DNA of 64,000 nt from a virus. Taxonomy: Duplodnaviria > Heunggongvirae > Uroviricota > Caudoviricetes. Below are positions 11,693-25,620 of the stretch, one piece after another. Location of the stretch: IMG/VR virus record IMGVR_UViG_2795385758_000004, positions 22,292 to 86,291 of that record. One strand, 5' to 3'. The translations under genes and the position numbers were made by a program. Positions within the stretch are counted from its first letter, which is position 1. Each line of letters opens with the position of its first letter. The notes beneath the pieces are model-generated. The model was not told the origin of the DNA, did no database searches, and saw only the letters and a program-made list of their open reading frames with translations.

Positions 11693-12076
11693 ATGGCATG
11701 GGGCATTTCGGCCTACCTGGCGAACAAGATTCTCGATCACATCTGCCGCAACGTGGCCTACACACCACCGGCAACCGTGTACGCCAAGATGCACACCGGC
11801 GATCCCGGCGCGAACGGAACGGCTAACGCATCCTCGGTGGCCACCCGCTACGCCTGCGCGTTCAACGCGGCGGCAGCCGGGTCGATCAGCCAATCCAACA
11901 CCCCCGAGCACACTCTCGGCGCCATGGAAAACATTGCCGGGGTGTCATTCTGGGATCACCCAACGGCCGGGAACTTCTTGTGGTCATCGCAGGCCGCCGC
12001 CTCCAAGTCCGGTGCCAGCGGCGACATCATCCGCATCAACACCGACACCCTCGCACTCGGCCCGCTGGCGGCATGA
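11693..12076 (+). CDS. hypothetical protein (tail/lysis boundary)
   Basis: 127 aa ORF with a ribosome binding site. Position-equivalent to 26398..26760 in prophage B. Confidence 0.45.
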   Translation: MAWGISAYLANKILDHICRNVAYTPPATVYAKMHTGDPGANGTANASSVATRYACAFNAAAAGSISQSNTPEHTLGAMENIAGVSFWDHPTAGNFLWSSQAAASKSGASGDIIRINTDTLALGPLAA

Positions 12077-12219
12077 TGCGCCGCCAGCTGCTCATCTATC
12101 CGGCCCTCTACCTCGCCGTGTTCGCCGTCGCGTTCCGCCTCGGCTGGTGGGCATCGGACCAGCTTTCGTCCTACGCCCAAGAAATCGACCCACGTATCGA
12201 AAAGGAGTACACCCGATGA
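12073..12219 (+). CDS. small single-TM membrane protein preceding lysin A
   Basis: ATGATG start overlaps the upstream TGA, and its stop overlaps the lysA ATG (ATGA). 48 aa with hydrophobic core LLIYPALYLAVFAVAF. 47-aa homolog at 26252..26395. Confidence 0.4.
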   Translation: MMRRQLLIYPALYLAVFAVAFRLGWWASDQLSSYAQEIDPRIEKEYTR

Positions 12220-12872
12220 GCTTTCGCACTGTTAACGGCAACACCCATACCGAGGACGGCTGGCGGTGCTGCAATCGGGATGAATGCGACATCGTGCGCA
12301 TACCCGAGCTGTACCTCGTCGATACCGCACCGCTGCGCAAGGGCGCTCCGCTGACCATCCTCGGCGCCTGGCTGTACTGGTATGACCGCAACGTCGAAGA
12401 GATCACCTCCCCGGTCTGGGGGTGGTCTGCCACTAACGATGTCCTCGGCACTCCGGGTCGTAACGACGGCTCTAATCACTTGTCGGGTACCGCTGTTGAC
12501 GTGATGGCACCCAAGTACCCATGGCAGCAGTACACGATGAACGCCGCCACACAGGCCAAGGTCCGCAAGGGCCTGGCGCTGTTCGAGGGCTCGGTGTTTT
12601 GGGGACGTGACTGGTCGCGCCCCGACGAGATGCACTACCAGATGGCCTGGCCCGAGGGCGACAAACGCAATGACGCGTTCGCCGACAAGCTGCGCGCCGG
12701 ATACCTCGGCATCTACGCCCCCGCACAGCCTCCAGCGCCCGTGCAGAAACGTTTCCCGCAAGACCTTTCCGACCGCGAGCTGCTGGAGTACATCGCCGAA
12801 CAACTCGGACCAGGACACCCTGACTGGGCATCCAAGGGCATGACGCTGCGCGACAAGGTGTGGTCCAAGTGA
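12216..12872 (+). CDS. lysA: lysin A, single-domain peptidase M15-like endolysin
   Basis: ATG at 12216 with AAGGAG ribosome binding site. The longer upstream extension in the track overlaps the preceding gene in another frame and was not used. SNHLSGTAVD ... DEMHY matches the SxHxxGxAxD / DxxH LAS-peptidase signature. Sits immediately upstream of lysB. Confidence 0.7.
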   Translation: MSFRTVNGNTHTEDGWRCCNRDECDIVRIPELYLVDTAPLRKGAPLTILGAWLYWYDRNVEEITSPVWGWSATNDVLGTPGRNDGSNHLSGTAVDVMAPKYPWQQYTMNAATQAKVRKGLALFEGSVFWGRDWSRPDEMHYQMAWPEGDKRNDAFADKLRAGYLGIYAPAQPPAPVQKRFPQDLSDRELLEYIAEQLGPGHPDWASKGMTLRDKVWSK

Positions 12873-14044
12873 TCCGCATCGGCGACCGCAACCAAGCCGT
12901 CCGGCAGTGGCGCGCCGTGATGAACGACCGATACGGGCCGCTCTACACCCGGCTACTGGGACCGCTGCCCCGCGACACCGACGAATTCGGTCCCCGCGCC
13001 GCGTCCTGGGCAGCCGAGTACCAGCGCCGCACCGGCCAGATCCCCACCGGGCAGGTGTCCGATAACGACCTGCGCGCACTGGGCATCACGCCCCCGGCCC
13101 CGCCCGCCAACCGGCACCTCGGGCTGATGTTCCGGGGCACCGGAGGCATCATCGGCCAGGACTACGTATCTCGCGTCATGCAGGCCGTGGCCAACCTCGT
13201 TGAAGAGGTACACCCCGAATTCGCCGCAACCATGGGCGGGCTGCCGGTCGGCGCCGCGGGCGGCCCGGGCGACATATCGATGGCCAAGGCCGTCGACATC
13301 GCCGAGGCCGACGCACAACGCATCTTCACCGAGCGCTACCGCGCCAACCCCAACATCAAGGTCGTCATCGGCGGATACTCGGCCGGCGCGGTCGCGGGCG
13401 CCCGGTTCCGCGCGTGGCTGCTGGAGCACTACCCGAACAACTACCTGTGCTCATTCAGCATCGGCGATCCCACCCGCCCGTACGGTGGCAGCTACTACGG
13501 CGGTCCCGTCCTTGCTGGACAGGGCATTTCGTCGTGGCGGTTCGGCGATGTCAAGGACTACCGGCACTGCTGGCTCACCGACCCCGGCGACATGTACGGC
13601 AACATCCCCCTCGGTGTCGTCGGGGACATCATGGACGACTGTTTCGACATGGTGACCGCGTTTCAGCTCTCGGATCCGCTCGGGGCCGCTGGCGCCATCC
13701 TGCCGAAAATCCCCGAGATCGCCACCAAGGCCTTGGGTATCGAGCTGCCCGCCATATTCGGCGCCCTCTCTGGCGGCCCGGCCGGCATCGGAGCCATCGG
13801 CCTACCCATGGTGCTCGGCGGTCTACAGGGACTACTCGGCTGGGGCGATATCAACAAGCTCACCGGGCCCGCGGCCGCGGCGCAGGCCGCCTTGATCGCG
13901 CTGCGTTTCGTCACCACCAGCCCACCGACCGCCGCGCATATTCAATACGAATACCGCGAGGTCTGGCCCGGCCAAACCTATCTCGGCCTCGCCATCCAGC
14001 ACGTGCGCGACTGGGCCAGCCGCACCCCCGCCATAGCCGCGTAG
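12860..14044 (+). CDS. lysB: lysin B (mycolylarabinogalactan esterase) with N-terminal peptidoglycan-binding-like domain
   Basis: GGYSAGA matches the GxSxG serine esterase motif in a cutinase-like fold. GTG start at 12860, or alternatively GTG at 12869 overlapping the lysA TGA (GTGA). About 95% identical to 24436..25620. Confidence 0.85.
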   Translation: MVQVIRIGDRNQAVRQWRAVMNDRYGPLYTRLLGPLPRDTDEFGPRAASWAAEYQRRTGQIPTGQVSDNDLRALGITPPAPPANRHLGLMFRGTGGIIGQDYVSRVMQAVANLVEEVHPEFAATMGGLPVGAAGGPGDISMAKAVDIAEADAQRIFTERYRANPNIKVVIGGYSAGAVAGARFRAWLLEHYPNNYLCSFSIGDPTRPYGGSYYGGPVLAGQGISSWRFGDVKDYRHCWLTDPGDMYGNIPLGVVGDIMDDCFDMVTAFQLSDPLGAAGAILPKIPEIATKALGIELPAIFGALSGGPAGIGAIGLPMVLGGLQGLLGWGDINKLTGPAAAAQAALIALRFVTTSPPTAAHIQYEYREVWPGQTYLGLAIQHVRDWASRTPAIAA

Positions 14045-14177
14045 ATCAGTCCGCCCCCGCGCGAGGAGAGCGCGCTGGGACTCCCCACACCGTAGCGCTC
14101 CCTATCCATGGCGCCATCGAAAAAACTCCCCCTGAACTGCCCAAACCCTGTTATCCACAACCCCGAGAGGACCCGTC

Positions 14178-14405
14178 ATGCCCAACCCCATACCCCAAAA
14201 CGACACCACCCGCCTCATCGTCTACGCGGTCATGTTCATCGTCGTGTTCGCCGGAACCGTGGCCATGATCATCTCAGGGAAAATGGACGCCGCCAGCGGA
14301 CTGCAATGGGTGATTTCCATTGCCGGTCTCATCGGTACCGGCCTGCCGGGCCTCAAACTCGCCCAAGATATCCGCGGGAGCGGGCCGGACGGGTCGGCCG
14401 AGTGA
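14178..14405 (+). CDS. holin-like protein, two predicted TM helices
   Basis: 75 aa with GAGAGGA ribosome binding site. Two hydrophobic segments (LIVYAVMFIVVFAGTVAMII and WVISIAGLIGTGLPGL). Directly downstream of lysB. Confidence 0.55.
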   Translation: MPNPIPQNDTTRLIVYAVMFIVVFAGTVAMIISGKMDAASGLQWVISIAGLIGTGLPGLKLAQDIRGSGPDGSAE

Positions 14406-14653
14406 CCCCCGAGATAATCCAGGCGCTCGGCGTGGCCATCGCTGCGATTCTGACCGCGTGGCAAGCAATGACATCGCGGAAGGTTCGCGAACTCGAGGCC
14501 CGGATCAAGGCGGTCGAGAAGGAACGCGACCAGTTCCGCGACAAGCTCAGGGCCGCGGTGCGACACATCCGCGACTGGATGGGATGGGCCATGCACCACG
14601 CGCCCGGACAGGCCCCACCGCCGCTGCCGACAGAACTCGTCGACGAGGTGTAG
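14402..14653 (+). CDS. second lysis-cassette membrane protein (1 TM + coiled coil)
   Basis: GTG overlaps the upstream TGA (GTGA). One TM segment (ALGVAIAAILTAW) then a charged coiled-coil region. Homolog at 23753..24004. Confidence 0.5.
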   Translation: MTPEIIQALGVAIAAILTAWQAMTSRKVRELEARIKAVEKERDQFRDKLRAAVRHIRDWMGWAMHHAPGQAPPPLPTELVDEV

Positions 14654-14680
14654 CCCCCCGACTCGGAGTTAGACAGCTTG

Positions 14681-14727
14681 CCCAAAGGTGCCCCCGCTCA
14701 AACACACTGAGCGGGGGCACCTTTGGG
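14681..14727. terminator. bidirectional stem-loop terminator between convergent operons
   Basis: Perfect 20-bp inverted repeat cccaaaggtgcccccgctca / tgagcgggggcacctttggg around a 7-nt loop. Lies between the end of the + strand lysis genes and the end of the - strand toxin/immunity operon. Confidence 0.6.
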
Positions 14728-14733
14728 CGTTCG

Positions 14734-15006
14734 CTACTGCGAGTATCCGGGGCCGTAGGTGGTCGTCCCGGGTGGCACTATAGACTGCCCGATAGCCAGT
14801 ACTAGAATGAAGACCACAGATCCCGCCGCGGCGGCCAGCATCCCGATCGAGAAGGGGCGGGACTTCGGCGGTATGTAAGTTCCTATGCCGACTAGCACGA
14901 GAAGTACCGGCGTGAACATGTAGAGGTAGACCGCCAGGGAGAAAGCGGCAGACCCGGCCAGCAGACCGGCAATAGTCAGGTATCGGTTCATGTGATCGCC
15001 ACCCAA
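14734..15006 (-). CDS. small membrane protein (second immunity candidate)
   Basis: 90 aa with 2-3 hydrophobic helices. Lower GC than the surroundings. Last gene of the - strand toxin operon. Confidence 0.4.
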   Translation of the reverse strand: MGGDHMNRYLTIAGLLAGSAAFSLAVYLYMFTPVLLVLVGIGTYIPPKSRPFSIGMLAAAAGSVVFILVLAIGQSIVPPGTTTYGPGYSQ

Positions 15007-17908: not shown

Positions 17909-18808
17909 TCATGTTGATTGCCTCTCGATTGCGCTGGCTGAACGCCGGCGGGTCGCTGCCTTCTTGGTTCGAGGTGAAGCGCACAGCCGTGACGCCAGTG
18001 CGTCAACGCCAACCGCACCGCGCCGCGTGTTGTAGCCGAGGTAAACCATTGTGGTAGCAAGGCTTTGGTGCCCAAGGGCTTCTTGGATATACCGGATATC
18101 GACGCCAAGCTCGTTGAGCGCGGTTGCGAAGCGGTGCCGCAACGTGTGCAGCGTGTACGGCAGCTTGAGGCCCGCCAAGAAGTCCGAAGACACCACCGAC
18201 ACGTAGTTCGGAGTCACCTGCCCTCCAAGCGGACGGCGGAACATCGGTCCAGCCTGGCTGAGCTGAATGGCCAGCCGTGCCTGTACCTCCGGCGGGACAC
18301 GAACGATGCGTTGCTTTCCACCCTTGCCATGCACGGTCAGGAACGCGCCGCCATTCTCATCGGGGCGAAAGTCGGTGCGAGACATCTGCGCGATCTCCCC
18401 AGCGCGCAGACCGCAGTATCCGGCCAGTAGTAGCCACGCGTGCATGTCTGAGCCGGCGGGGGCGGCCAGCAATGCCAGGCGTAGGTGATCCTCGGGAATG
18501 GGACGCGGCATCCGGCGTTTGAGCTTGGGCTGTACGAGGCTGGCGGTTGGGTCCTCGTCGATGAGCCTGCCGCGGTGAGCCCATCTGTAGAACGCGCAGA
18601 CGTGCGAGGTGTAGGTCTGAATACTAGAAGGGCACACTCGAAGCGACCGTTGCCATGCTTCGAGCTGCGCGGGGGTTGCATCTAGGAGGGGGGTATCACC
18701 GAGCCAGCGCGCGAGCCGGTCTATCTGGCCGAGCCTGTGCTCGATCGTCTTCGGGGTCATGTTGCGCAGACGCAGGTGTGCTGTGAACTCGCTGAGGGTG
18801 TTTTCCAT
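17909..18808 (-). CDS. int: tyrosine recombinase / phage integrase (Xer-like, 299 aa)
   Basis: N-terminal SAM-like core-binding domain. C-terminal catalytic motifs HTLRHRFAT and ALGHQSLATTMVYL carry the R..H..R..Y signature. About 75-80% identical to integrase B. Confidence 0.85.
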   Translation of the reverse strand: MENTLSEFTAHLRLRNMTPKTIEHRLGQIDRLARWLGDTPLLDATPAQLEAWQRSLRVCPSSIQTYTSHVCAFYRWAHRGRLIDEDPTASLVQPKLKRRMPRPIPEDHLRLALLAAPAGSDMHAWLLLAGYCGLRAGEIAQMSRTDFRPDENGGAFLTVHGKGGKQRIVRVPPEVQARLAIQLSQAGPMFRRPLGGQVTPNYVSVVSSDFLAGLKLPYTLHTLRHRFATALNELGVDIRYIQEALGHQSLATTMVYLGYNTRRGAVGVDALASRLCASPRTKKAATRRRSASAIERQST

Positions 18809-18846: not shown

Positions 18847-19012
18847 TTGTTGCAGGTCAGATGCTTTCCTGAGCGGAAAACGTGACCCGAACTCGCGCGA
18901 CGCCCGATGCGCTTATACGGTTCATACTCACGAGTATGAACCGTATAAGTCCGCGTTCCGGCGCGCCAGCTCAGGTCACGGTTTCCGCTCGGGGAAGCAA
19001 CTGACCTGCAAC
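18847..19012. repeat. large imperfect palindrome between divergent integrase genes with perfect 18-bp core inverted repeat (candidate shared att core / recombinase site)
   Basis: Outer arms ctgacctgcaacaa are identical on both sides. Inner arms are about 85% identical. The core cttatacggttcatactc ac gagtatgaaccgtataag (18912..18949) is a perfect inverted repeat. Confidence 0.55.
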
Positions 19013-19056
19013 AAGTCCACCCGTTCGGTTTCCTAGCAAAAGGACGGGCTGTACTT

Positions 19057-19947
19057 ATGTCACCTGTGAATAATGACACTGTCGTCTCAGAGTTTGCTCG
19101 TTATCTGAAGCTGAAGAACTTCACAGCTAAAACGATCGAGCACCGCTTGGGGCAGATTGCTAGATTAGCTAGATGGCTTGGGGAAACATCTTTGCTGGAG
19201 GCCACCCCGGAGCAGCTTGAGGCCTGGCAGGGTTCGTTGCGGGTGTGCCCGTCTAGCATCCAGACCTACACGTCGCATGTTTGCACCTTCTATCAGTGGG
19301 CCTACCGATGTGGGCGCACGAGCGAATACGTCGCAAAAGACTTGGTGCAACCGAAGATTCAGCGCCGTATGGCCCGGCCCATCCCCGAGGACCACTTGCG
19401 GATCGCGCTGACCGGCGCGCCTGTCGGGACTGACATCCATGCATGGCTGCTATTGGCCGGATACTGCGGTCTGCGCGCTGGGGAGATCGCGCAGATGTCA
19501 CGCAACGACTTTCGCCCCGATGAAGGCGGCGGCGCCTTCCTGACCGTGCACGGTAAGGGAGGGAAGCAACGCATCGTCCGAGTTGCCCCCGAGGTCATGC
19601 AACGTCTGGCAATTCAGCTGAGCCGACCCGGCACCATGTTCTGCCGTCCCCGCGGCGGGCCAGTCACACCCAACTACGTCTCGGTCGTGGGTGCGGAATT
19701 CCTAACCAATCTCGGGCTCCCGTACACGCTGCACACCCTGCGACACAGGTTCGCGACCGTGCTCGCCGACGAAGGCGCGGACCTCCGCGATATCCAGGAA
19801 TTGATGGGGCACGAGAGCCTGGCGACCACCATGCGGTACCTCGCTTACTCGACCCGACGTGGAGCGGCGTCCGTCGACTCGCTCGCGTCGCACTTGTGCC
19901 CCTCGCGGTCGTCGGCATCGAGAATGGAACAGCGCAGTCACAAGTAG
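19057..19947 (+). CDS. int: tyrosine recombinase / phage integrase (Xer-like, 296 aa)
   Basis: Homolog of integrase A with the same catalytic motifs (HTLRHRFAT, LMGHESLATTMRYL). Transcribed divergently from integrase A. Confidence 0.85.
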   Translation: MSPVNNDTVVSEFARYLKLKNFTAKTIEHRLGQIARLARWLGETSLLEATPEQLEAWQGSLRVCPSSIQTYTSHVCTFYQWAYRCGRTSEYVAKDLVQPKIQRRMARPIPEDHLRIALTGAPVGTDIHAWLLLAGYCGLRAGEIAQMSRNDFRPDEGGGAFLTVHGKGGKQRIVRVAPEVMQRLAIQLSRPGTMFCRPRGGPVTPNYVSVVGAEFLTNLGLPYTLHTLRHRFATVLADEGADLRDIQELMGHESLATTMRYLAYSTRRGAASVDSLASHLCPSRSSASRMEQRSHK

Positions 19948-23241: not shown

Positions 23242-23670
23242 ATGGCGAGAGAGATGGGCACCCCGGCGAAAGCGTTGTGGGTGTGTCTGGGGGTATTTGT
23301 CGGGCTGCTGGCGTTCATGGCGGCGTGCGCAATAGGGCTGTCGGGCCAATCCGGAAACGTTGGTGTGAGCGTTGAAGTGAGGCAAAAGTACGCGATCGAG
23401 ACATGCCAGTCCGCTCTCATGAAGCGCATGCGTGACCCTGAGAGTGCGAAGTTCGCCGATGAGGTGGCCCGTGAAGGCGTGGCGCATGGAGGTGGTCGCG
23501 ATCCCGAGTTGGACTACTCGCCCGACCGCGGTGATATTTACTTTACGGTGACGGGCAATGTCAACGCCAAGAACGCGTTTGGTGGTTACACGGGGATGCG
23601 TCCCTACACCTGCGATGCGGTGGTGGACAGAAACGGCACAACGCAAAGCCGGGCCCGCGTGCTGGATTAG
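23242..23670 (+). CDS. membrane-anchored / lipoprotein-like secreted protein
   Basis: N-terminal hydrophobic segment ending FMAAC looks like a lipobox. 142 aa. Last + strand gene before the convergent terminator. Confidence 0.4.
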   Translation: MAREMGTPAKALWVCLGVFVGLLAFMAACAIGLSGQSGNVGVSVEVRQKYAIETCQSALMKRMRDPESAKFADEVAREGVAHGGGRDPELDYSPDRGDIYFTVTGNVNAKNAFGGYTGMRPYTCDAVVDRNGTTQSRARVLD

Positions 23671-23690
23671 TGCACTAGAAACACGAATAG

Positions 23691-23730
23691 CGCCCCTCAC
23701 CGGGTCGGGGTGAGGGGCGTTATTTCGTTG
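23691..23730. terminator. stem-loop terminator (bidirectional) between convergent operons
   Basis: cgcccctcacc gggtcgg ggtgaggggcg followed by a T-rich tract. Confidence 0.55.
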
Positions 23731-23752
23731 GCCTGCAATCAGTGTGGGCTCT

Positions 23753-24004
23753 CTACACCTCGTCGACCAGCTCTGCTGGTAGTTCGGGTGTGGGCGTTTC
23801 GGGTCTGTGTTGTCGCGCCCAGCCCATCCATTCGCGGATGTGTCGGACGGCTGCGCGGAGTTTGTCACGATATTGGTCGCGCTGGCCTACGACGATGGCT
23901 AGTTGAGCTTCCAGGTCGCGGACTTTGCGCGAGGTGCGGGCTTGCCAGGCGCCCAGGATGGCGACGATGGCGCCGCCGACGGCTTGGATCTGGTCGGGGC
24001 TCAC
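23753..24004 (-). CDS. lysis-cassette membrane protein (1 TM + coiled coil), homolog of 14402..14653
   Basis: GTG overlaps the upstream TGA (GTGA). Contains AVGGAIVAILGAWQARTSRKVRDLEAQ. About 75% identical to the prophage A protein. Confidence 0.5.
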   Translation of the reverse strand: MSPDQIQAVGGAIVAILGAWQARTSRKVRDLEAQLAIVVGQRDQYRDKLRAAVRHIREWMGWARQHRPETPTPELPAELVDEV

Positions 24005-24297
24005 CGGCCGCTGCCCGCCACGAGCTTGAACAGGCTGGACGGTACGACCGCCTTGGTGGCCGAGGCGGTACCGGATCGGCCCAGCTTGATCGATGCCGCA
24101 GAGAAGATGAGCGATACCGCCAGCGTCCCGGCGCCGACATTGATACCGCTCTGCCAATCGATCTCGGTCAGGGCTGCGTTCACCGCGGCGTCGGCCAGGT
24201 TGGCGCCGACGATGAAGCCACCCGCGAACGTCTTGATAGCGCGCTCGGCAGCGTCAACGGCGGCGTCCTTGAGCCAGGGCGGGATGGTGATGTGCAT
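24001..24297 (-). CDS. holin-like membrane protein, unrelated in sequence to the holin of prophage A
   Basis: ATG at 24297 has a GAGAGGA ribosome binding site at the same spacing as in prophage A. 98 aa with hydrophobic glycine-zipper segments (GGFIVGANLADAAV, GAGTLAVSLIFSAA). Confidence 0.5.
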   Translation of the reverse strand: MHITIPPWLKDAAVDAAERAIKTFAGGFIVGANLADAAVNAALTEIDWQSGINVGAGTLAVSLIFSAASIKLGRSGTASATKAVVPSSLFKLVAGSGR

Positions 24298-24435
24298 GAC
24301 GGTCCTCTCGGCGGTTGGGTTGTGGATAACTGCGTTTGGGCAGTTCAGGGGGAGTTTTTTCGATGGCGCCATGGATAGGGAACGCTACGGTGTGGGGAGT
24401 CCCTGCGCGCTCTCCTCGCGCGGGGGCGGACTGAT

Positions 24436-25620
24436 CTACGCGGCTATGGCGGGGGTGCGGCTGGCCCAGTCGCGCACGTGCTGGATGGCGAGGCCGAGAT
24501 AGGTTTGGCCGGGCCAGACCTCGCGGTATTCGTATTGAATATGCGCGGCGGTCGGTGGGCTGGTGGTGACGAAACGCAGCGCGATCAAGGCGGCCTGCGC
24601 CGCGGCCGCGGGCCCGGTGAGCTTGTTGATATCGCCCCAGCCGAGTAGTCCCTGTAGACCGCCGAGCACCATGGGTAGGCCGAGCGCGGCGATACCGTTG
24701 GGGCCACCAGTGAGCGCGCCGAATATGGCGGGCAGCTCGACACCCAATGCCTTGGCGGCGATTTCGGGGATTTTGGGCAGGATGGCACCAGCGGCCCCGA
24801 GTGGGTCAGTGATCTGGAATGCGGTCACCATGTCGAAACAGTCGTCCATGATGTCCCCGACCACCCCGAGGGGGATGTTGCCGTACATGTCGCCAGGGTC
24901 GGTGAGCCAGCAGTGCCGGTAGTCGGTGACATCGCCGAACCGCCACGATGAAATACCCTGTCCCGCCAGGATTGGGCCGCCGTAGTAGCTGCCACCGTGG
25001 GGCCGGGTGGGGTCACCAAAGCTGAATGAGCACAGGTAGTTGTCCGGGTAGTGCTCGGCCAGCCACGCGCGGAACCGGGCGCCCGCGACCGCGCCGGCCG
25101 AGTATCCGCCGATGACAACCTTGATGTTGGGGTTGGCGCGGTAGCGCTCGGCGAAGATGCGTTGTGCGTCGGCCACGGCGATGTCGACGGCCTTGGCCAT
25201 CGAAATGTCGTTGATGCTGCCCGCGGCGCCGACCGGGAGTCCGCCCATGGTTGCGGCGAATTCGGGGTGCACTTCCTCAACGAGGTTGGCCACGGCCTGC
25301 ATGACGCGAGATACGTAGTCTTGGCCGATGACTCCTCCGGTGCCCCGGAACATTAGGCCCAGGTGGCGGTTGGCGGGCGGGGCCGGGGGCGCAATGCCCA
25401 GCGCGCGTAGGTCATCATCGGACACCTGCCCGGTGGGGATCTGGCCGGTGCGGCGCTGATATTCGGCGGCCCACAGGGCAGCGCGCGGCCCGAACTCGTC
25501 GGTGTCGCGGGGCAGCGGCCCCAGCAGCCGGGTGTACAGCGGCCCAAACCAGTCGTTCATCACGGCCCGCCACTGACGGACCGTTTCATTGCAGTCTCCG
25601 ATGCGGATCACTTGGACCAC
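24436..25620 (-). CDS. lysB: lysin B (mycolylarabinogalactan esterase)
   Basis: 394 aa with GGYSAGA, matching the GxSxG motif. About 95% identical to 12860..14044. Confidence 0.85.
   Translation of the reverse strand: MVQVIRIGDCNETVRQWRAVMNDWFGPLYTRLLGPLPRDTDEFGPRAALWAAEYQRRTGQIPTGQVSDDDLRALGIAPPAPPANRHLGLMFRGTGGVIGQDYVSRVMQAVANLVEEVHPEFAATMGGLPVGAAGSINDISMAKAVDIAVADAQRIFAERYRANPNIKVVIGGYSAGAVAGARFRAWLAEHYPDNYLCSFSFGDPTRPHGGSYYGGPILAGQGISSWRFGDVTDYRHCWLTDPGDMYGNIPLGVVGDIMDDCFDMVTAFQITDPLGAAGAILPKIPEIAAKALGVELPAIFGALTGGPNGIAALGLPMVLGGLQGLLGWGDINKLTGPAAAAQAALIALRFVTTSPPTAAHIQYEYREVWPGQTYLGLAIQHVRDWASRTPAIAA

Follow-up and report, generated by a model that had tools for sequence, protein, structure and literature searches.

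Two Mycobacterium (Mycobacteroides) abscessus prophages, lying tail-to-tail, contribute their right parts to the 64,000-nt stretch of viral DNA analysed here (the window), and their lysis modules share a lysA-lysB block whose similarity ends at the start codon of the next gene. From this ATG onward, the slot after lysB is filled in the two prophages by members of what appear to be two unrelated families, both of holin type, with a putative function. We hold the explanation as a whole to be very likely, namely that these are lysis modules with unrelated holin families, a joint at the ATG, later homogenisation of the DNA beside it, and functions assigned by analogy.

The prophages are known from published strains (PMC8092301; PMC9934374), the one on the left (arm A) as prophi62-3 and prophi108-1 of cluster MabN and the one on the right (arm B) as prophiGD51-1 and prophiCCUG48898T-1 of cluster MabC. 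Positions 13400-14760 of arm A are 100% identical to the GenBank records of prophi62-3 and prophi108-1 (megablast), as are positions 23650-25080 of arm B to prophiGD51-1 and prophiCCUG48898T-1. Likewise, GenBank records MW584177 and MW584186 match arm A at 100%, and MW584163 matches arm B at 100% across the lysis end. The sole mismatches between arm A and the last 10.5 kb of prophi62-3 are four bases within the att core, and the identity of arm B to prophiGD51-1 is 99.7% across 11.2 kb. The assignment of prophi62-3 to MabN and of prophiGD51-1 to MabC, both with attB-13, is that of Dedrick et al. (2021, PMC8092301). In the published strains each prophage lies alone at attB-13, whereas here the two are fused, inverted, at the att core.

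The annotation is the same in both published prophages (lysin A, lysin B, holin or membrane protein), and the GenBank gene order in both arms is small protein, lysin A, lysin B, small membrane protein and 83-aa protein, followed by a leftward polymorphic toxin/immunity cassette and a tyrosine integrase. Coordinates are collected in Table 1. Outside the lysis modules, similarity between the arms is confined to a minor-tail segment (80%) and the integrase/att region (70%); to the right of the 83-aa gene the arms are unrelated apart from the integrase and att region.

Table 1. Features of the two lysis modules and of the prophage junction (window coordinates).
Feature	Position	Strand	Assignment or basis
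Arm A	up to about 18930	+	prophi62-3, cluster MabN
Arm B	from about 18931	-	prophiGD51-1-like, cluster MabC
Arm A small membrane protein upstream of lysA	12076..12219	+	prophi62-3 gene 56, phrog_27408
Arm B small membrane protein upstream of lysA, 47 aa	26252..26395	-	phrog_27408
Arm A lysin A, 218 aa	12216..12872	+	Peptidase_M15_4 PF13539 E=1.9e-9; phrog_1512 endolysin E=7e-82; MW584177 annotation
Arm B lysin A, 215 aa	25608..26255	-	Peptidase_M15_4 found in identical copies elsewhere
Arm A lysin B, 391 aa	12869..14044	+	phrog_102 endolysin E=1.2e-90; annotated lysin B
Arm B lysin B, 391 aa	24436..25611	-	annotation, family matches
Identical tract, 279 nt	13797-14075 = 24683-24405		longest exact match in base-level alignment
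Arm A lysB-holin intergenic region, 133 nt, MabC-like	14045..14177	+	GAGAGGA ribosome binding site 14165-14171
Arm B lysB-holin intergenic region, 138 nt	24298..24435	-	GAGAGGA ribosome binding site 24309-24303
Arm A 75-aa holin-like protein	14178..14405	+	prophi62-3 gene 59, phrog_22367; joint at its ATG(C)
Arm B 98-aa holin, Phage_r1t_holin family	24001..24297	-	PF16945; annotated holin in MW584163
Arm A 83-aa partner	14402..14653	+	phrog_17237; GTG start overlaps holin stop (GTGA)
Arm B 83-aa partner	23753..24004	-	phrog_17237; same GTGA overlap
Prophage-prophage junction, near-palindromic att core	18912..18949		18-nt perfect palindrome arms around central AC

The two lysA-lysB blocks were aligned with blastn, which gave 88.1% identity over 2132 columns (12081-14194 against the reverse complement of 26390-24281) and bore out the claim of an initial annotation of the window that these blocks are conserved between the arms. 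Homology starts at 12081, and between 14194 and 14395 the same search found no match across the arms. On annotation and family matches, LysA would be an M15 peptidase and LysB an esterase that detaches the mycolic-acid outer layer. Arm A lysin B has a GYSAG lipase-type motif and weak matches to cutinase and lipase Pfam families; a search with LysB gave no PDB sequence match. The left edge of the shared block is formed in both arms by the 47-aa phrog_27408 gene, which lies directly upstream of lysA and overlaps it; a hydrophobic segment is clear in the arm A copy, and the arm B copy scores under the hydropathy threshold applied.

Identity within the block is not uniform. With an average of 88% over the block, the 3′ end of lysB and the first 31 nt of the intergenic region form a perfectly identical tract of 279 nt. 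This perfect tract is particular to the GD51-1 lineage, other MabC members being only 92-93% identical to arm A over the last 300 nt of lysB, and it thus indicates a later homologous exchange, whose recent footprint it would be, between the prophi62-3 and GD51-1 lineages.

The similarity ends abruptly at the start codon of the following gene (14178 in arm A, 24297 in arm B). In a 50-column sliding window, identity is 96-100% from ~13796 to 14120 and only 20-45% from ~14190, the latter being background for this G+C; taken together, it is 99% across the 350 nt before the joint and at background after it. At base level, only two mismatches follow the 279-nt tract up to 14146, and the 32 nt before the ATG hold two substitutions, a 5-nt indel and a 1-nt indel as well as the GAGAGGA ribosome binding site. 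From codon 2 onward the two sequences are unrelated. The earlier proposal that homology stops at the holin ATG, and does so abruptly and not gradually, is borne out by both the sliding-window profile and the base-level alignment, in which the gagagga site is indeed common to the two arms (Table 1) as part of a shared cGAGAGGACC(C)GTCATG. The coordinates and lengths first assigned to the 75-aa, 98-aa and two 83-aa genes were also right.

In order to map the joint, eight prophages were compared over the 45 nt that precede the start codon. To the left of 14178, arm A agrees with arm B and other MabC prophages (the leader 5′ of its gene is GAGAGGACCCGTC). From the second codon on it resembles prophi79-1 and prophi91-1, and what lies 5′ of the gene in those two (agaagggatctcgaaATG in prophi79-1 and aagaaggagaccgctATG in prophi91-1) is unrelated to the arm A leader. 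This three-way comparison places the joint within ATG(C), 14178-14181, and the megablast match between arm A and prophi79-1 begins at query position 779, which is window position 14178. The sequence ATGC is all that the two sides of the joint have in common. Their relatives differ as well, being MabC prophages on the left and prophi79-1 (MabQ), MabB prophages and prophi91-1 on the right; prophi79-1 is a 76-kb prophage in which the pair of 75-aa and 83-aa genes lies near the left end, after a gene for endonuclease VII. Hence the marks of a mosaic joint are all present: an abrupt change, its coincidence with a start codon, and different relatives on each side. A joint a few bases 5′ of the ATG, with subsequent convergence on the ribosome binding site, is possible because two small indels and two substitutions fall within the 32 nt before the ATG.

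The products of the two first genes both have two hydrophobic segments (Kyte-Doolittle) and show no detectable relationship to one another. BLASTP gave no match between them, and a comparison of profiles of the two families, built from 20 and 21 sequences, gave an hhalign probability of 0.2% (E=0.31). The family assignments differ as well, so the description of the first holins as non-homologous was well founded.

The arm A protein matches phrog_22367, a family of unknown function, end to end, and has no curated family: no Pfam or NCBIfam family was matched, and no NCBIfam names were found for the small lysis-module proteins. Its homologues come from Mycobacteroides and a few unclassified Mycobacterium metagenome bins. 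A profile search of 1.84 billion representative proteins placed this family (A-type) in only six clusters at 50% identity and linked it to no named holin family; likewise, tblastn against 50,697 phage records matched only M. abscessus phages and prophages. Although the prophi62-3 copy (gene 59) is annotated "membrane protein", copies 61-89% identical to it are annotated "holin" in many M. abscessus prophage records, and relatives at 79-89% identity occur in unrelated contexts, with homology starting at the ATG.

Class II holins are about 65-95 aa long, with two transmembrane domains and a charged, usually basic C-terminus, and are encoded beside endolysin genes. The 75-aa protein fits this layout, with a gene 133 nt after lysB and hydrophobic peaks at residues ~12-34 (2.6) and ~41-59 (1.5); its initial description as a two-TM protein agrees with these putative segments, which come from a Kyte-Doolittle scan and not from a dedicated topology predictor. 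However, its C-terminus is atypical in not being basic, the last 16 residues (KLAQDIRGSGPDGSAE) having two basic and three acidic residues and a net charge of about -1.

The arm B protein is, by contrast with the arm A protein, a member of Phage_r1t_holin (PF16945), which it matches over 64 of the 72 profile positions with 27.1 bits, just above the gathering threshold of 26.9. It also matches the holin family phrog_443 (E=4.6e-13), and all 27 of its 27 database homologues carry PF16945. Like these homologues, it has the conserved ERAxKTFA motif and a GTASxT tail. As to the glycine zipper named in the initial annotation, GxxxG-like motifs are present, but the invariant small residues of the family are mostly Ser and Gly.

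The conserved intergenic DNA was also considered as a regulatory or RNA element, and this was rejected, since its folding was not significant (z = 0.12 and -0.93 for structured RNA) and a promoter/terminator scan of the region gave no match. Its perfect conservation is instead attributed to recency, because the neighbouring coding sequence is equally identical. An ATG at 14108 in arm A and at 24372 in arm B opens "MAPSKKLPLNCPN..." within this DNA. In arm B it is in frame with the holin and would give a 123-aa form, which is the holin CDS of the phiGD57-1 record; in arm A its frame is that of gene 60 and not of gene 59. A longer holin was rejected because this conserved stretch would not read into gene 59 there; the extension is very unlikely to be coding and the longer phiGD57-1 annotation is probably wrong.

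Similarity between the arms returns at the GTGA stop/start overlap and ends at the stop codon of the 83-aa gene. At the protein level the two copies are 67% identical, each with an N-terminal hydrophobic segment followed by a charged, coiled-coil-like region, and the overlap suggests that the gene is translationally coupled to the one before it. In the DNA the identity is 70.6% (14395-14653 against 24010-23753, blastn), which is the same divergence as separates this gene from its counterparts in most other M. abscessus prophage clusters. Homology does resume in the second small gene, as the initial annotation had it, but at a level well short of the 88-100% of the lysA-lysB block. Similarly, its reading of a single-gene replacement inside an otherwise conserved operon is right about a non-homologous swap at a gene boundary and not about the downstream gene, whose divergence is older. 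The ATG is thus the right-hand edge of the shared lysA-lysB block and not the flank of a one-gene cassette.

The 83-aa protein (phrog_17237) has homologues in 42 phage records and is far wider in distribution among M. abscessus prophage clusters than either holin type. It is found after several different upstream "holins", and its identity does not track the holin type: in prophi79-1 the holin is 89% identical to that of arm A, and the partner is 64% identical to that of arm A and 76% to that of arm B. In the 50,697 phage records, tblastn matches to this protein were M. abscessus phages and prophages, Mycobacterium phage Maddy2 (57%), and, at 33-36%, the M. smegmatis phages Fredward and Phillis and one Rhodococcus phage.

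Related prophages reveal what else has occupied the same slot. In prophi91-1 (MabC), an A-type gene (~74% identity) lies between a lysB end 94% identical to that of arm B (94-96% in the comparison with prophiGD51-1) and an 83-aa gene 96% identical to that of arm B and prophiGD51-1. Compared with prophiGD51-1, it is the intergenic region and the holin that are swapped, one joint lying 5 nt past the lysB stop and the other on the GTG that opens the next gene. In prophi52-1 (MabC) the r1t holin of prophiGD51-1 is kept (99%) and an unrelated 126-aa gene replaces the 83-aa gene, between flanks of 99-100% identity and with joints at GTGA and within 10 nt of the stop. Clean one-gene replacements are, on this evidence, found in these two pairs and not between arms A and B. 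Furthermore, in phiT45-1 and prophiGD53-3 the spacer is 26 nt long, the A-type genes are distant ones, and a 120-aa or 98-aa gene comes next. Taken together, these comparisons indicate that exchange among the distal lysis genes proceeds gene by gene and that the joints lie on gene borders.

A separate insertion was observed in phiGD57-1 and prophi52-1, which carry ~197 extra nucleotides directly after the lysB stop, corresponding to window position ~14044/14045 (L012 2146-2340 and L013 2146-2340). A degenerate repeat of the 3′ end of lysB (GCACC..CGCC..TAGAT) bounds the insert, in which a short ORF is annotated and the reverse strand shows a motif resembling a T-arm. A tRNA remnant or known RNA was considered and rejected, ARAGORN and Rfam both being negative.

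A recombinant was found in a public read-set assembly (Logan SRR30795574_50, here L007), where the prophage is integrated normally beside host genes. Its tail genes, lysA and 5′ lysB are of MabC type, and to the right of the crossover it is 100% of prophi62-3 type, with the 75-aa gene, toxin cassette and integrase. Across 259 informative sites, the switch from B-type to A-type alleles falls between 13018 and 13021, inside lysB. This pattern marks L007 as a natural chimeric prophage and indicates that homologous recombination acts within the shared lysin block. The reciprocal type, an arm A left side with the arm B holin, was absent from the 10 genomic contexts of the exact r1t holin. The intergenic region is followed by the r1t holin in many MabC prophages and by the A-type gene only in the prophi62-3 lineage and L007, which makes the arm A arrangement probably the derived one, the direction being given by parsimony only.

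We propose that, in the ancestry of arm A, a cassette of A-type holin and partner, prophi79-1-like or MabB-like, was joined to a MabC-type block of lysA, lysB and intergenic region. The join would have been non-homologous or by microhomology, as suggested by the ATGC that is all the two sides share, and would have landed on the start codon. Selection may then have kept only joints that left a ribosome binding site and an intact reading frame, and survival of such joints alone would place the joint at a gene boundary. The last ~350 nt to the left of the joint would later have been homogenised by homologous exchange with a GD51-1-like phage.

The 75-aa and 98-aa proteins could instead be orthologues that have diverged past recognition, with no replacement at all. 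Both are small, have two hydrophobic segments, occupy the same slot and are coupled to homologous 83-aa partners. We find this scarcely credible, since a few bases suffice for DNA identity to drop from 99% to background, next to flanking genes that are 88-100% identical, the lengths differ, and the profile comparison found next to nothing in common. Moreover, the A-type gene has close relatives in unrelated contexts, with homology beginning at its ATG, and both holin types are present among otherwise near-identical MabC prophages. A different possibility is that targeted homologous recombination took place at a short conserved linker of ribosome binding site and start codon, such as the stretch that the arms share at this point; several joints in this prophage group do lie on GTGA or ATG motifs. 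However, the A-type carriers prophi79-1 and prophi91-1 differ upstream, so that no conserved linker accompanies the cassette, and the common sequence amounts to four nucleotides, which makes a linker unlikely here.

The sharp left flank and the 279-nt tract might also reflect gene conversion between the co-resident prophages of this very genome, where the lysis blocks, as inverted copies of 2.1 kb lying ~10 kb from each other on one chromosome, are a favourable substrate. Against this, the alleles are identical over the whole 1.36-1.43 kb tested in strains with a single prophage beside host genes (prophi62-3 and prophi108-1 for arm A, prophiGD51-1 and prophiCCUG48898T-1 for arm B), so the tract is older than this genome. 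Formally, these single lysogens could descend from a double lysogen; conversion within this genome is nevertheless very unlikely. Non-homologous or microhomology joining followed by homogenisation is the reading that we retain.

The prophages themselves are joined right end to right end (18847-19014, core 18912-18949), inverted and with no host DNA between them, and both use attB-13. The palindrome at the junction sits in a 56-nt, 86% inverted repeat made by the two phage arms, and the integrases, 70% identical, face apart (17909-18808 on the minus strand and 19057-19947 on the plus strand). In normal single-prophage attR sites the att core is near-palindromic, reading GTTCATACTC-GT-GAGTA(A/T)GAAC. 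The same inverted junction is present in GCA_900136365.1 (L020 5751-6000) with another partner prophage, which has a 304-aa integrase. The junction likely arose when a second phage integrated in reverse orientation into the attR of a resident prophage. Direct tandem prophages are described in PMC9934374; inverted ones were not found there. The inverted double prophage may outrank the holin swap in interest.

The inverted repeat of the two lysA-lysB blocks, 2.1 kb with its 279-nt perfect core, ends at both holin start codons and brackets both holins, the partner genes, the polymorphic-toxin cassettes, the integrases and the fused att core. It is conceivable, though we regard it as doubtful, that recombination between the lysA-lysB repeats would invert the ~10-kb segment between them and swap complete right arms with neither prophage damaged. 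The homology edge at the ATG would then be, beyond a historical scar, the functional boundary of an invertible segment, and double lysogens could be the natural birthplace of chimeras such as L007, with its MabC left side and prophi62-3 right arm.

In gene order the two modules resemble that of mycobacteriophage Ms6, gp1-lysA-lysB-gp4-gp5, in which a two-component holin of Gp4 (two TMDs) and Gp5 (one TMD) jointly sets lysis timing (PMC6116114). In the arms as in Ms6, a two-segment protein of roughly 75-100 aa is followed by a one-segment protein with a charged C-terminal part, and the two downstream genes are adjacent and coupled, here by the GTGA overlap. LysA is here a short M15 peptidase, whereas that of Ms6 is an amidase. 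The product of Ms6 gp1 is a LysA export chaperone. The 47-aa phrog_27408 gene occupies the position of gp1, although its product, unlike that of Ms6, has a hydrophobic segment. Ms6 was absent from the tblastn matches of the 75-aa and 83-aa proteins among the 50,697 phage records, a set in which its presence is unconfirmed. By analogy with Gp4 and Gp5, the two-segment protein and its 83-aa partner probably work together as two-component holin and timer of lysis. A link of the swap to different lysis timing or to adaptation to the host envelope, put forward in the initial annotation, would be conjectural.

Module boundaries at gene boundaries are standard phage biology, for which conserved linkers, or illegitimate recombination followed by selection, have been put forward (PMC3233612, PMC3029335). 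The difference between arms A and B is textbook gene-by-gene mosaicism, clean but ordinary. As in the Hendrix/Hatfull model for (myco)bacteriophages, identity is lost abruptly at a start or stop codon, relatives of each module turn up in phages that are otherwise unrelated, and no conserved boundary sequence extends beyond the 4-nt microhomology. Nothing essential differs; what the present case adds is the 279-nt identical flank and the recombinant L007, and these show that ordinary homologous recombination acts in the shared block beside the joint. The word holin has 0 occurrences in the M. abscessus prophage paper PMC8092301, so the holin swap appears undescribed, yet it is a fresh example of a known phenomenon in already deposited sequences.

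The two arms illustrate, at good resolution, how temperate phages that share a host exchange lysis genes singly, with joints on gene borders at codon precision. Members of at least two unrelated holin-type families can fill the slot behind lysB, and the gene after it varies independently, being of 83 or 126 aa after r1t-type holins and of 98 or 120 aa after distant A-type holins. This free variation of the slot and the following gene suggests that lysis timing, if the assigned function is correct, is a readily exchangeable trait, and these lysis genes may be natural candidates for engineering therapeutic M. abscessus phages.
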